Assembly (NCBI GenBank): GCA_039030515.1
Contig: JBCCEA010000001.1
Span: 160,001-224,000 of the forward strand
DNA length: 64,000 bases
Direction: 5' to 3'
Origin: Myxococcota bacterium
GTDB lineage: Bacteria > Myxococcota_A > Polyangia > Polyangiales > Houyiibacteriaceae
The stretch's first letter is position 1, and each line of letters begins with the position of its first letter. Both the position numbers and the translations under genes were made by a program. Positions 36,870 to 52,910 of the stretch are shown here, in pieces. The notes under the pieces are model-generated. The model saw nothing but the letters and a program-made list of their open reading frames with translations, ran no database searches and had not been told where the DNA came from.

Positions 36870-36899
36870 GTAGAGCCGAGGATGTGGGGGCGTGGGACG
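36870..36899 (-). promoter_or_regulatory. Motif A copy (CGTCCCA-N14-CGGCTCTAC)
   Basis: Upstream of the chaperone, tape measure and baseplate genes. Confidence 0.8.
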
Positions 36900-36963
36900 G
36901 TTGACTCGCTGCGAGTCGTTGCGTGATCTCTGCAGGAACGCACCGAAGCGGATGGAGACTTCT

Positions 36964-37386
36964 ATGGATCGCAACGCGCTAACCGGAAGCTGGGTCGAAG
37001 CAGCTCAGAGCGGGTCGCTTCTGACCGCGAAGCACGACCCGAACAACCTGTCGATCACCTTTGCTCGATACCGAACCGTTCTCGACCACGCCGTCTCAGC
37101 CAGCCTGGAGTCGTTCATCTCATCGGGCGAATACGACATCACGAAGTATGAGGATGCGCGATACCCGAACGGTGCGGGGTACTTCGAGGTCACGCCCAAG
37201 CCGGCAAGCGGCTTCACAGTCGTGGGGTCAGCCGTCCCGTCCGGTTCTGTCACCCCTACGGGAAGCCTTGACCGACTCGTGTTCGTGTCTGGCAGCCAGC
37301 AAGGCTGGCATGTCTACGCCGAGAGCTCGGCGCAGATCTCCGGCAGCGTCACCAGCGGACGTCTCACCCGAAGCGGCAGCATCTAG
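36964..37386 (+). CDS. Orphan hypothetical protein (moron, opposite strand)
   Basis: RBS GGAG before ATG 36964; stop abuts the tail tube stop. Confidence 0.6.
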
Positions 37387-44324: not shown

Positions 44325-45263
<939 letters not shown>

Positions 45264-45276
45264 GGGCGGGGGCTCC

Positions 45277-46128
45277 TTACAGGTCGTGAAAGGAGACCGC
45301 CTTGTCGACGCTCTCCCGATCCATCGGGTTGTTGAGGTCCATCGGCCAGCCCACCTCCTCGGGCGCGGCCTTGCGCACCGATTCGGGGCTCTGGCTGCTG
45401 TTGGGCAGGCCGAACTGCTTCTCGACGCGAGTGAGCCGCTGCTGCTGCTCCTTGACCGTGTCGGCCAGCGCCCGGAACGAGTCCCCCATCGCGGCGAGCG
45501 TGGTGGTGAGCTCGTCGGGCAGCTTCGCCGGCGCCTCGGTCGGCGCGGCCGTGGCCTCGGTCTCAGGCTCCGATGCTGGCGCGCTCGTCAGCGCTGCGAG
45601 CTGGGTCAGCGCCGCGCGGGCGGCCTGGAGGTGGTCGGCGAAGGCGTCGCCGTCCTTGGCGTCCGAGGGCTCCTCGGTCGGCTCCGTGTCCGTGTCGCCT
45701 CCGCCGGTCGCCGCCGGCTCCACGCCCGCGCGGGCGAGCAGCGCCTCGGCGGTCGCCTTGAGCTCGGTCGCCAGCGGCGCGAGCCGGGCGTCGGCCGCCT
45801 GGGCTCCCATCGCGCCGAGCAGCTCGACCGTGCTGGTCAGCCCCTCGAGCGCCGCCACGGCGGTGGCGAGGAGCGGATCCGGCGCGGTCGACTCGGGCTG
45901 ATCGTCCGAGGTGGTGGCAGGCGCCCCCTCTTCGGGGGCGGGCGCATCGGCCGAGGGCTCGGCGCCTTGCTCCTGGGTGTCGGTGTCGGCGTGATCGGCC
46001 ATGGGCGTGTCCCTCTTCACGATGAGAAAGCGGTGCTCGTTCGCCGCGCGGTCCACGAGCGAGACCTCCTCGACGACGATGTCGAGCAGGCGGTTGACGG
46101 ATCGGTCGGCCTTGCGCGGGTCACTCAT
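45277..46128 (-). CDS. Scaffolding protein carrying the N-terminal [10 protein letters not shown] protease strand
   Basis: Acidic, Ala-rich and coiled-coil; directly upstream of the capsid gene. Confidence 0.7.
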
Positions 46129-47477
46129 GCGGCCTCCTCGGCGGGGGCGCCCGAGGGCTCCGCCTCTTCGGTGGCGGTGGGCTCCGGCACGCGGCGGGCC
46201 GAGCCTCCGATGGAGAAGCCCGTGAGCTCGCCGTCCTTCACGCGCCGCCAGAGGTCATCGGAGAGCACGCGCACGGCGAGCAGCCAGGTGCCCTTGGCGA
46301 TGGTCACGTCACCCACCTGGAAGGCGGTCGGCGCGACGTAGCTCTCGAGCACCCTCACGTGGTCGTTGACCCGCAGCTGGTGCATCAGGCCGAGGCCGCC
46401 GAACTCCTCCATGAAGCGGTGGGCTGCCTGGCGGACCTCCTCGTGGGAGTAGATGTCGCCCTGGGCGTCCACGCGCTCGGGCTCGAGGACCACGCCGAGC
46501 ACGTAGCGCTCGTCGTCGGGGTCCACCTCCTTGAGCAGCGTGCAGACCTTCTCGATGGGCGGGTCCGCAGCCGCCTCGGGCGCGGGCTCCCAGTCCTCGA
46601 GCCAGGCGTGGCCGTCCTCGTGCTTCTCGACGAACTTGTAGTTGGCGACGAGCAGCTGGGTGAGCACCGAGGGCCCGCCCACGCCGCGCATCGCCCCGAT
46701 GGTCCGCGGAGTGCGGATGCGCTTGATGTGGAACCCGGCGTCCTTGAGCAGCTTCGGCAGCTTGCCCCGGATGCCGTAGGTCATCAGCCACTTGCCCTTG
46801 AGCGACTTGAGCACCTCGAAGAAGCGCTCCTCGTCGAACTTGGACTCGCCGACGTCCACGTTGTAGCCGGGGTACGGCGGGTCGAGGAAGAAGGCGGTGT
46901 CGGCCCCGTCGTACTTGCGGACGACCGGCTCGTAGTCGCCGGAGTGGACCTTGACCTTCGCCAGGCGCGGCGCGTGCCGCTCCAGGCGGGCCATGGTCTT
47001 GGCCTCGATGCCCTGGACGTTCGGGCTGAACGTCCGGCCGCGCATCTTCCCGTAGGAGAAGTGGGTCAGGTACAGGAAGCGGTGCAGCTGCTCGAGCTCA
47101 CCACGAGGGCTGGCGTCGAGCAGGCGCTTGAACGTCGCCTCGTCGCCGGTCCAGGTCATCCCGCGCAGCTTCTCGAGCTTCTTCGGGTTGAGCTTCTGGA
47201 TGATGCGGAACGCCTTGCCGATCTCGGGGTCGGCGTCGTTGATCGCCTCGACCTCGGCGGGCTCCTTCTCGAAGAGCACCGCGGCCGAGCCGGCGAAGGG
47301 CTCCACGTACACGCGGTGCTTCGGCAGCAGCTTCACGAGCCGGGGCGCGAGGCGCTTCTTGCCGGCGGGCGAGCCCCAGATGGTCTTCTCCACCAGCTCA
47401 CCGTCCGCGCCAGCGGCGCCGAGCCCGTCGAGCACCGCGCGGGCGCGGTCCACGGCGTCCTGCACGTGGTCACCCAT
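46125..47477 (-). CDS. Fusion: Dam-like (D12 class) N6-adenine DNA methyltransferase + XkdF/S78-type prohead protease
   Basis: [16 protein letters not shown] and FLDPPY; C-terminal [29 protein letters not shown] and [10 protein letters not shown]. Confidence 0.88.
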
Positions 47478-47781
47478 GGCGTAGCGCCTCCGGGTCACGC
47501 CCCCAGGTCAGCTCGGCGGCGTCACTGGCCGCCATGTCGCGGGGCCACCCCTCGTCGGTGGGGGCTCCCTTCTCGGTCGCCGACGGCGGCGCGGGCTCCA
47601 CCGCCTGCCGCATCGCGGCGGCGAGATCCGAGAGCTCCTTCGCGGCGTCAGCCGGCACCGGCACGTCGCCGGCCCGGTTGAGCTTGTCGACCACGGCGAC
47701 GAGCCGGCCGCCCAGCGCCTTGAGGGACGCGGCGACCTGGCGGGCCGTGGGGGTCTTGGCTTTCTCTGTCGAGGCGCTCAT
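47470..47781 (-). CDS. Small head-module protein with scaffold-like GWPxD motif
   Basis: First gene after a motif A copy; C-terminus resembles the scaffold C-terminus. Confidence 0.7.
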   Translation of the reverse strand: MSASTEKAKTPTARQVAASLKALGGRLVAVVDKLNRAGDVPVPADAAKELSDLAAAMRQAVEPAPPSATEKGAPTDEGWPRDMAASDAAELTWGRDPEALRHG

Positions 47782-47828
47782 GCGCGGGCTCCCGTTCGCT
47801 CCGAGTCGGCGGAGAGGTCTTCACGGGA

Positions 47829-47858
47829 GTAGAGCCGGGCCCGATTTCGAGTGGGACA
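47829..47858 (-). promoter_or_regulatory. Motif A copy (TGTCCCA-N14-CGGCTCTAC)
   Basis: Upstream of the protease, capsid, neck and sheath genes. Confidence 0.8.
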
Positions 47859-47870
47859 CGACGCCGGCGC

Positions 47871-48956
47871 TCACACCTCGGGCACGGTCGTCGTGCGGCA
47901 GAGCCCGTGGTACGGCGGGAAGCCGACGCCGAGGTCCATCAGCTCGCGGTTGCTCACGGCCCGGCCGTGCTCGCCCTGGTCGTCGACCGTGCCGACGCCG
48001 GAGCGGGTGACCTCGACGAGCGGCGTCCGCAGCCCACCGCGCTCGACGAAGAGCACGGGGTTGCCGGTCTGTGGGTCGAGGGACTCCCGGACCCAGGGCT
48101 GGGCGTCCTTCACGTCCTCGGGCCGCTCCAGGCGGTCGAGGGCGTCGAAGCGGCGGAGCGCGTCGCCCACCTCGAAGACCTTGCCGTGCAGGTAGCGGCA
48201 GATATCGGTGGTCTGCTCGTCGAGCACCGCCTCGATGAGGTAGCGGGTGATGCCCGCCTCGGCGTAGCTGCTGATCTGGGCGTAGGTGCGGCCGTTCCCG
48301 ATGAACGCTCCGGCCACGACGTCCCAGTAGAAGGCGGAGCGCGCGACGAAGGTGTCCTGGGCTGCGGCCTGCAGCGCGGCCGAGATGTCGTCGCGGCCGA
48401 GGCCCGCCTCGAGCCCCTCGGCGACGACGCGGCGCGCGTCTGCGCCGAAGCCATCGATCCGCCGCCCGAGCTCGTCGGTGACGAAGTTGACCTGCGTCCG
48501 CACGACGTGGGCGGTGATCCGGCGGTCGACCGCGTTGAAGTCGGCCCCGATGGCGAGGTTGTGGACGCGGCGGCCGTGGCTGCGGGTGGCCGAGACGACC
48601 TCGTCCGCCGCGGGCCCGAGGGTGGTCTGGATGCGCGCCGGGATGAGGGCGGTCGCGCGGCCGGCGGCGTTCATCGCCTCCGAGACGAGCCGCCGCCTCT
48701 GGGCCGGCGTTGTCCGATGCCAGTCCACGTCGAGCACGTCCACCGCGGCGCGGACCGCGTCCCGCTCCGAGCGTCCCGCCTGCTGGCGAAGCTCGGCCGC
48801 GAGCGACGCGACGGCTCGGTCGAAGCCGCGGGCCGTGCCGAGATCCATCGCCTTGGCCACCGGCTCCCCGAGCAGCTCCGCCGCGAGCGAGCTGGCGACG
48901 CGGTGTGCCTCGGCGACGACGGCGAGGGCGTCAGCGGTACCGCACGTTCCGCACAT
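47871..48956 (-). CDS. MuF/SPP1 gp7-family head morphogenesis protein
   Basis: AVLDEQTTDICRYLHG and PPYHGLCRTT motifs. Confidence 0.85.
   Translation of the reverse strand: MCGTCGTADALAVVAEAHRVASSLAAELLGEPVAKAMDLGTARGFDRAVASLAAELRQQAGRSERDAVRAAVDVLDVDWHRTTPAQRRRLVSEAMNAAGRATALIPARIQTTLGPAADEVVSATRSHGRRVHNLAIGADFNAVDRRITAHVVRTQVNFVTDELGRRIDGFGADARRVVAEGLEAGLGRDDISAALQAAAQDTFVARSAFYWDVVAGAFIGNGRTYAQISSYAEAGITRYLIEAVLDEQTTDICRYLHGKVFEVGDALRRFDALDRLERPEDVKDAQPWVRESLDPQTGNPVLFVERGGLRTPLVEVTRSGVGTVDDQGEHGRAVSNRELMDLGVGFPPYHGLCRTTTVPEV

Positions 48957-49479: not shown

Positions 49480-49490
<11 letters not shown>
49233..49490 (-). CDS. Small Zn-finger protein
   Basis: CRTC and CDRC motifs; overlaps both neighbours. 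Confidence 0.65.
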
Positions 49491-51284
<1,794 letters not shown>

Positions 51285-51288
<4 letters not shown>

Positions 51289-51575: not shown

Positions 51576-51653
51576 GCACCGCTTGTCTCCGACAAGTCCT
51601 TCGGCGATCTTGATGTGCAAAATCACGGTGGTGCGTTCAACGAGAGTCACGAG

Positions 51654-52910
51654 ATGAAGCTGCCCTTCGAAACCTGGCTGGAAAGCTCCGAGGTTCCCTC
51701 TGAGGCCGACGTCGCCTACCGCGAGTCGGTGATCAGCTACAAGGCGGGGGCGTACCGAGCGGGACTGCTCTTCGCCTATGTTGGTACCGGGCTCTGGCTC
51801 CGACGACGGCTCATCGCGGCCACATGCCCGGCAGGAATTCCAGCCGGCCAATGGGCAGCGATTCAGCGCGATCTGCAAGATGACAACAAGTGGGATGCGA
51901 CGGTGTTCGACTGCACTCAGATGCGCGCACCGAAGGACATCTTCAGCGTGGACGACCACGTGCGCGACGAGTTCAAGTACTGGAAGAATCGCAGGAACGA
52001 CTGCGCGCACTTCAAGAGCAACATCATCGCCGCTTCCCACGTCGAGTCATTCTGGCTATTCTTGCAGTCCAGCATTGGGCGTTGGGTGCCGAACGGAAGC
52101 GCCCAGGACCTGATCGAGCGACTCGCTCGCCACTTTGATCCGAACCTCACGCCCCCCGGCACCGATGTCGGACCACTCGTGGCGTTGGTGCCGCACGCGG
52201 TTCCGCACGCCGAACTACCGGGCTTCTTCGATTCGCTGGAGACGCGGTTCACCAGAACCCTCGGTACGTTCGCGATGGTCAACCGGGATGCACTCATCCA
52301 CATACACGAGGCGATCTTGCGCGGGGCCAACGCCGTCGTGGCCCCGGCATCGATTACGTGGCTCCTGGGACACCCGGACATCCTGGTAGGGGTTCTGAGA
52401 AAAAGCGCCAGCCACGTGCTCTGTCTGTCGGGTCGTGCGACCGAGGTCCGCAAGCTCTGGCGGACGCAGCTCTTCGATGGCGGCCACCAGGACCTCGGGG
52501 TCGTTGCCGCGCTGCTCAGGAACAACTTGATTCCCTCCGCAGAGATAGCTGAGGCCATCGAGACGACGGTTGGGAAGCTCAACGGCGACATTCCGTCTGC
52601 GATCGACGAGCCGGTCCTGGCTGCACACGGCTTTTGGAGCCGCTTCCACGATCACGCCGTCCTGAACCGCCAAATGGACAAGTTCGAATGGGGGAACCGC
52701 AACGCGGGACTCATTGCATGGCGGGTCCAGAATGCCCCAATCGACCGCGAGACCGCAGAGGCTATCTGCGGGGTGTTCTCCTGTGAGCCATACCCTTTCA
52801 CCGTGCGAGATGCTCTGAAGGAGATGCTCGCGGGGAGCCCTGCAAAGATGTCTGAGCTGCAAGCTGCAGCGACCCAGGCCGGAACGAGCGTTCCCTCCGT
52901 GTTGACGTAG
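51654..52910 (+). CDS. HEPN-like (RxxxxH) protein, candidate abortive-infection moron
   Basis: E...Y..GAYRA helix and YWKNRRNDCAH; visibly weaker GC3 bias than the flanks; opposite strand. Confidence 0.65.
   Translation: MKLPFETWLESSEVPSEADVAYRESVISYKAGAYRAGLLFAYVGTGLWLRRRLIAATCPAGIPAGQWAAIQRDLQDDNKWDATVFDCTQMRAPKDIFSVDDHVRDEFKYWKNRRNDCAHFKSNIIAASHVESFWLFLQSSIGRWVPNGSAQDLIERLARHFDPNLTPPGTDVGPLVALVPHAVPHAELPGFFDSLETRFTRTLGTFAMVNRDALIHIHEAILRGANAVVAPASITWLLGHPDILVGVLRKSASHVLCLSGRATEVRKLWRTQLFDGGHQDLGVVAALLRNNLIPSAEIAEAIETTVGKLNGDIPSAIDEPVLAAHGFWSRFHDHAVLNRQMDKFEWGNRNAGLIAWRVQNAPIDRETAEAICGVFSCEPYPFTVRDALKEMLAGSPAKMSELQAAATQAGTSVPSVLT

Follow-up and report, generated by a model that had tools for sequence, protein, structure and literature searches.

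To our knowledge, it is understood in few phages how the activity of the prohead protease is controlled before the shell is complete, and how the protease enters the head. In HK97 gp4 and the peptidase S78 family, the third catalytic residue lies on a strand that follows the catalytic serine. Nested genes for protease and scaffold occur in phage lambda (C/Nu3) and in herpesviruses (UL26/UL26.5), and an internal in-frame start yields a shorter, scaffold-only product. For SPN3US a third catalytic residue after the serine was also reported, and a protease cut just past the serine was expected to be inactive for want of this residue, according to the accessible part of that paper (PMC7411985). XkdF peptidase has been called unrelated to the SH-superfamily prohead peptidases (PMC7824862, in the portion of the text available). 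Assemblin-like peptidases located at the C-terminus of virion polyvalent proteins were described, and packaging of these proteins in the virion was proposed, in the available sections of Iyer et al. 2017 (PMC5512222). A published description of a split protease/scaffold was not found in the literature searched, and older work (Cheng 2004; Fokine and Rossmann 2016; Liu and Mushegian 2004) might mention it.

The window, the whole stretch of 64,000 nucleotides analysed here, carries a contractile-tailed prophage on its minus strand, and the head module of this prophage hosts a predicted head-maturation protease that is split over two genes. The late genes follow the order terminase, portal, MuF-like gene, methyltransferase-core fusion, a 283-aa gene and capsid, and then sheath, tube and baseplate. 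Named close relatives are found mainly in myxobacteria. The genes concerned are the following.

49480..51288, minus strand: portal gene, context (PF04860)
47871..48956, minus strand: MuF-like head morphogenesis gene, context (PF04233)
46125..47477, minus strand: methyltransferase-protease-core fusion gene, 450 aa (phrog_13242 match over the full length; PF02086 and PF14550)
45277..46128, minus strand: predicted scaffold gene, 283 aa, its role suggested by its place between the protease and capsid genes
44325..45263, minus strand: HK97-type major capsid protein (PF05065, phrog_1623)

The Pfam scan of the head genes showed no second protease gene, tblastn found no second copy of the protease core or of the strand module described below in the genome, and no sigma-70 promoter was found in 45200-48000. 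Just upstream of the fusion gene lies a 103-aa gene (47470-47781, minus strand) ending in GWPRD, by eye similar to the C-terminal GWPMD of the scaffold; its product is possibly a second capsid-binding protein. Two ORFs on the opposite strand, 51615-52910 (plus, 431 aa) and 36892-37386 (plus, 164 aa), are inserted in the late operon, have no Pfam match and are possible morons. Immediately upstream of the large terminase gene, on the other strand, is a tyrosine recombinase gene (PF00589; 54368-55078, plus). The region to the left of the phage genes (694-15938, minus) harbours two RND efflux clusters, a heavy-metal-domain cation-efflux gene and a BlaR1-type M56 peptidase gene.

The fusion protein and the start of the scaffold contain the following elements.

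46707..47363, minus strand: Dam-like D12-class adenine methyltransferase domain, the cargo (PF02086, residues 39-257)
46191..46532, minus strand: XkdF-type protease core (PF14550, residues 316-429)
46467..46469, 46455..46457, 46380..46382 and 46212..46214, minus strand: core residues Asp337, Asp341, His366 and Ser422, respectively
46125..46139, minus strand: GAGGAGG ribosome-binding site and ATGA stop/start overlap, read from the sequence
46015..46092, minus strand: strand module of 26 residues, scaffold residues 13-38 (phrog_3017 positions 4-33), with Glu21 at 46066-46068

The fusion protein scores 59 bits against PF02086 (cut-off 22) and displays the methyltransferase motifs EPFAGS (59-64) and DPPY (199-202), both present in 120/120 homologs; the domain scores below the TIGR00571 dam cut-off. 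Its PF14550 score is 106.6 bits against a curated cut-off of 24. The serine motif GFSIGG (residues 420-425) is followed by a low-complexity tail of 25 residues and the stop codon, in line with the initial annotation, which held that the protease domain stops soon after this motif. The scaffold gene starts within the ATGA overlap, with GGAGG upstream. The profile phrog_3017 (head maturation protease) matches protease residues 305-433 with its positions 33-158 (E 1.2e-35) and scaffold residues 13-42 with its positions 4-33 (E 0.0017). Since this one profile matches both halves, module and core are pieces of one family. Judged from the profile positions, the cut between them falls where XkdF proteins are permuted. 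The initial annotation had claimed a prohead protease split over two genes, with the cut at the point of circular permutation of XkdF proteins; the first claim is confirmed by a profile that spans both genes and by the conservation of the split, the second by the positions matched. It had placed the module at the scaffold N-terminus, and the module does open the scaffold gene, but the motif starts at residue 13 and not at residue 1. The module is an invariant block in 31 scaffold homologs and the most conserved block of the scaffold N-terminus. The remainder of the scaffold consists of low-complexity linkers, conserved helical-looking blocks and a conserved C-terminal GWPxDLN..SFHD motif.

Contigs from 4/4 sequencing runs bridge the junction of the two genes with no indel listed there, one of these runs possibly being the source of the DNA itself. 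The junction is also spanned by contig X15 from an RNA library, a type of evidence that cannot speak to transcription or its levels. An assembly error as the cause of the split was ruled out by these bridging contigs together with the conservation of the layout.

Among the 120 best full-length homologs of the fusion protein, 117 end 13-49 residues past the serine motif without a module and 3 carry the module in the same chain. Loci were fetched for the best 80 of 483 (IMG/VR), 155 (genome) and 302 (metagenome) candidates, sets that overlap and are redundant, and the module was located on the downstream gene in 228/240 of them (78/80, 78/80 and 72/80, respectively). The other 12 comprise one in-frame fusion (L207), 7 loci cut by the contig end and 4 without a module in the fetched stretch (two with an inserted gene, one ending after 300 nt and one with a broken core). 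The comparison of fused and split homologs suggested in the initial annotation thus returned both states, with the split one dominant. The 229 paired core-module loci have an effective number of only 36, for which reason covariation analysis was dropped.

The two genes overlap by 4 nt (-4) in 138/150 near split loci. In distant loci 19-1319 nt separate the protease gene from the module gene, in all three frames. Tails after the serine motif vary in length and sequence among homologs, and a ribosome-binding site precedes the ATG of the module gene. Insertions of 0.7-3 kb are present at the junction in L166, L080, L094, L101 and L108, amounting to whole genes in L166 and L080. A TTGAC promoter-like box between the protease stop and the module gene was seen in 15/27 picked loci (control mean 2, maximum 6), a fraction biased upward because the 27 loci were picked for their gap or after the box had been seen. 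Loci with the box include L074, L078, L082, L090, L095-L097, L103 and L108-L112; the window itself has none. Its position upstream of the module gene suggests separate transcription of scaffold and capsid genes in these loci.

The same layout is found in cultured phages. Sixteen of these were picked by hand from 439-598 tblastn matches, and among them the module is N-terminal, the permuted order, in 4 (PBP180, Lactococcus 28201, HHTV-2 and Clostridium A2), C-terminal, the collinear order, in 1 (psiM100) and on the next gene in 11, including PAK_P1, PAK_P3, phi92 and ICP1. An independent module profile, built without scaffolds of cultured phages, ranked the N-terminus of the next gene top in the locus for 5/10, tied in DC31 and weakly in Sonali; it gave no detection in phi92, ICP1 and Colwellia 9A. 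A profile built from PAK_P1, PAK_P3 and DC31 scored 23.3 bits in phi92 and 25.1 bits in ICP1, against under 3 elsewhere, and placed the module of the window first in its own locus; it missed Colwellia 9A as well, where the module is recognised by eye alone. Rhizobium phage L338C (L035:2756-2900) has the split layout; an apparent one-base frame shift in its record interrupts the module, which is located ahead of the annotated start.

Several of these phages carry a gene annotated as 'DNA methyltransferase', namely PAK_P3 (L020:2441-2857), PAK_P1 (L029:2099-2569) and phi92 (L028:2030-2509). These genes encode protease cores of 138-159 aa, too short to include a methylase as well. Their annotation (PHROG 1530) has probably spread from methylase-core fusions like that of the window.

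Single-chain forms also occur among the relatives. The module is in the chain in 3/120 near homologs, in 6/150 core representatives and, with DNA context, in L207; P0098 and P0243 are possibly gene-call or frameshift artefacts and were not counted on as fusions. P0292 combines two XkdF cores in a single protein, and a module (identified by eye) comes after the first core in the chain. In a 54-row tree of the core, fusions are interspersed with split rows, well-supported (starred) branches require at least 5 changes, and one fusion is sister to a split locus with a support of 100/95. The tree has many long branches, and the order of split, collinear and permuted forms cannot be rooted from it. 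Joining and splitting of core and module recur, as read from this tree.

The core is found behind many kinds of cargo. A core search gave 6153 representatives at E up to 0.001. Of the best 150, which are protein rows without DNA context, 127 end at most 60 residues past the serine motif without a module, 6 have the module in the chain and the remaining 17 show either a longer tail or no match to the motif; P0292, whose module was recognised by eye, is one of these 17. When 62 longer representatives were scanned, 32 showed a further Pfam family and 30 did not; D12 methylases (18), InPase (13), ATP-dependent ligase (6) and Tad3 (2) were among the cargo. The Tad3 (Thoeris inhibitor) matches are in the cargo of P0258 and P0286, the former also having intein, LAGLIDADG and ligase matches. 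In many relatives the core is preceded by two or three methyltransferase domains in tandem (P0004, P0017, P0013, P0247 and P0270).

A second start is predicted within the scaffold gene.

46000..46017, minus strand: internal AAGAGGGA site and Met43, from which a second start is predicted to yield a scaffold of 241 aa that lacks the module

An ATG lies 3-7 codons past the module in 38/45 loci. The Arg codon before this internal ATG is AGG in 26/40 loci, compared to 131/2090 (6%) in the background, and AGG accounts for 5/349 Arg codons in eight phage genes of the window. By being AGG, this codon forms a ribosome-binding site. The gene is therefore predicted to give two scaffold forms, a long one with the module and a short one without it. 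ICP1 gp124 has been identified as a scaffold by experiment and is the only split-layout scaffold discussed here to be so confirmed, as far as the available part of the source goes (PMC10002752). The ICP1 scaffold was cleaved in E. coli constructs for which the same part of that text does not mention gp125, so that cleavage alone would be no readout of a split protease (PMC10002752). The cleavage of the ICP1 scaffold in E. coli counts neither for nor against strand complementation.

The structural relation of the two halves was addressed with the natural fusion P0263 (residues 96-256), which has a short linker between them. AlphaFold2 modelling with a 77-row alignment, 8 rows of which hold both halves, resulted in a model with pLDDT 88 and pTM 0.83, in which module strands 132-145 and 156-160 (pLDDT 84-89) come after the serine strand (113-123). 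A single-sequence prediction of P0263 (pLDDT 39) was set aside. The model fits a module that forms part of the protease domain. A link to the HK97-type proteases is seen at lower scores. Residues 196-254 of P0263, which span the join, give a weak match to positions 80-139 of TIGR01543 (15.4 bits, E 0.015; cut-off 59 bits), and neither window protein has a match to PF04586 or TIGR01543. With hhalign, neither half, taken as a profile, aligned significantly to the single sequence of HK97 gp4 (probabilities of 0.7% and 0.3%). HK97 gp4 has a motif REISVCTFPAN, similar to that of the module, inside its PF04586 domain. No protease relative came up when the PDB was searched by sequence, and an ESM Atlas search returned only XkdF clusters.

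His366 and Ser422 are invariant in 46 rows. In a separate 47-row alignment Asp337, Asp341 and the His are invariant and the Ser is conserved in at least 90%. The position of Glu21 in the module is Glu in 44/45 non-redundant near loci and H, F, I, Y, R or T in the cultured phages. The proposal of the initial annotation that the module provides the catalytic acid is thus possible for the near clade but does not hold in general, as the residue varies in the cultured phages and the core has conserved Asp337 and Asp341 of its own.

In the reading that we prefer, with a probability of about 0.7, the long scaffold donates strands to the core; this would dock the core and probably also complete the active site, with the cargo brought in alongside. 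The long scaffold form would bind the core by strand complementation. The internal start would provide bulk scaffold free of the module, so that only a minority of the scaffolds would carry protease. Binding of the module would complete the region after the catalytic serine, and proteolysis would thereby be confined to procapsids. The domain N-terminal to the core, here the Dam-like methyltransferase, would enter the head, and an injected methyltransferase could possibly protect the phage DNA. The evidence is strongest for docking, weaker for activation and weakest for injection of the cargo.

The main rival, which we give a small but real chance, holds that the module is a tether only, which recruits core and cargo, and that the His/Ser core is already active alone, perhaps by means of Asp337 or Asp341. 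The lack of family-wide conservation at the Glu position, the two invariant Asp residues within the core and the family model of Pfam, which covers the core alone, all agree with such a tether. Against it, the module adjoins the core in every single-chain form examined, forms a 14-residue strand straight after the serine strand in the model of P0263, and has Glu in 44/45 near loci. A further explanation is that the core is no longer a protease at all and just serves as a capsid-targeting tag for cargo enzymes. Its nearly constant C-terminal position on highly variable cargo, with 127/150 representatives ending within 60 residues of the serine motif, is what such a tag would look like, but the His and Ser are invariant in 46 rows, cores free of cargo occur in the lytic phages PAK_P1, PAK_P3, phi92 and Sonali, and the scanned head genes include no other recognised protease gene; we regard this explanation as improbable.

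Two other explanations are given still lower odds. A programmed -1 frameshift or readthrough could join both genes into a single protease-scaffold chain, and the -4 overlap that sets the scaffold in the -1 frame (138/150 near split loci) as well as the occurrence of in-frame fusions would allow this. A frameshift does not, however, fit spacings that run from -4 to +1319 nt and cover every frame; in the distant loci they measure 19 to 1319 nt in all three frames, and in some loci whole genes are inserted. The varied gaps and the TTGAC boxes upstream of the module gene (15/27 picked loci, control mean 2) make a joining frameshift unlikely, and tails variable in length and sequence and the ribosome-binding site before the ATG argue in the same direction, which leaves it very little probability. 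Slightest of all is the chance that the module is vestigial or serves the scaffold independently, for instance in self-association or capsid binding, with a core that folds alone or as an oligomer. The weakness of the profile-level link to HK97-type proteases speaks for this possibility. Against it, no other block of the scaffold N-terminus is as conserved as the module, the module accompanies the core in each of three gene orders, and the predicted short scaffold form omits it.

If strand donation by the long scaffold is true, the location of the last strands on the scaffold would explain both the off-state of the protease and its entry into the head. Beyond the initial annotation, the analysis adds the internal scaffold start, the variety of cargo and the fact that familiar cultured phages have this split too. 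The 'DNA methyltransferase' of PAK_P1, PAK_P3 and phi92 is re-annotated as half a protease, a route is suggested for loading anti-defence enzymes into heads, and circular permutation gains a natural intermediate in the form of a split gene. A short peptide and a 120-aa domain may also be of use as a split-protease or capsid-loading tool. A more far-reaching interpretation, whose odds we put somewhat short of even, is that of a widespread natural split enzyme, in which a 26-residue peptide on a minority scaffold form would complete and switch on the head protease, and the same contact would act as a loading dock for anti-defence cargo (methylases, ligases, InPase, Tad3-like proteins) fused to the protease half. 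Its users would include therapy and model phages such as PAK_P1, phi92 and ICP1, and collinear and permuted XkdF proteases would be connected through the split state as an intermediate.

Compared to known systems, the split protease of the window resembles the single-chain XkdF-type protease-scaffolds (PF14550, PHROG 3017), to which PBSX-like PBP180 ORF10, Lactococcus 28201 gp33, HHTV-2 gp38, Clostridium A2 and psiM100 ORF12 belong. It shares with them the His/Ser core, the module and adjoining scaffold and HK97-type capsid genes, but its module is located on a separate scaffold gene and its core is fused behind cargo. With the HK97 gp4 family (PF04586, TIGR01543, peptidase S78) it has in common, by eye and reading both genes in order, the motif order DxxGD, His, GxSxG, ExSxxxxPAN. 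The protease of the window is made of two genes, whereas HK97 gp4 is one chain and the HK97 scaffold lies within the capsid protein, as described in the available part of the source (PMC12749128). The fusion gene resembles the polyvalent proteins in the sections available of Iyer et al. 2017, in which a peptidase follows cargo, adenine methylase and InPase among others, at the C-terminus (PMC5512222). An incomplete peptidase with its remainder on the scaffold is not remarked upon in those sections, and the peptidase is called 'assemblin-like' there, which does not imply identity with PF14550 (PMC5512222). At the sequence level, the scaffold gene of the window is like lambda C/Nu3 and herpesvirus UL26/UL26.5 in having an internal in-frame start for a scaffold-only form. 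It differs from both in its long product, which carries no whole enzyme but just the final 26 residues of the protease domain.
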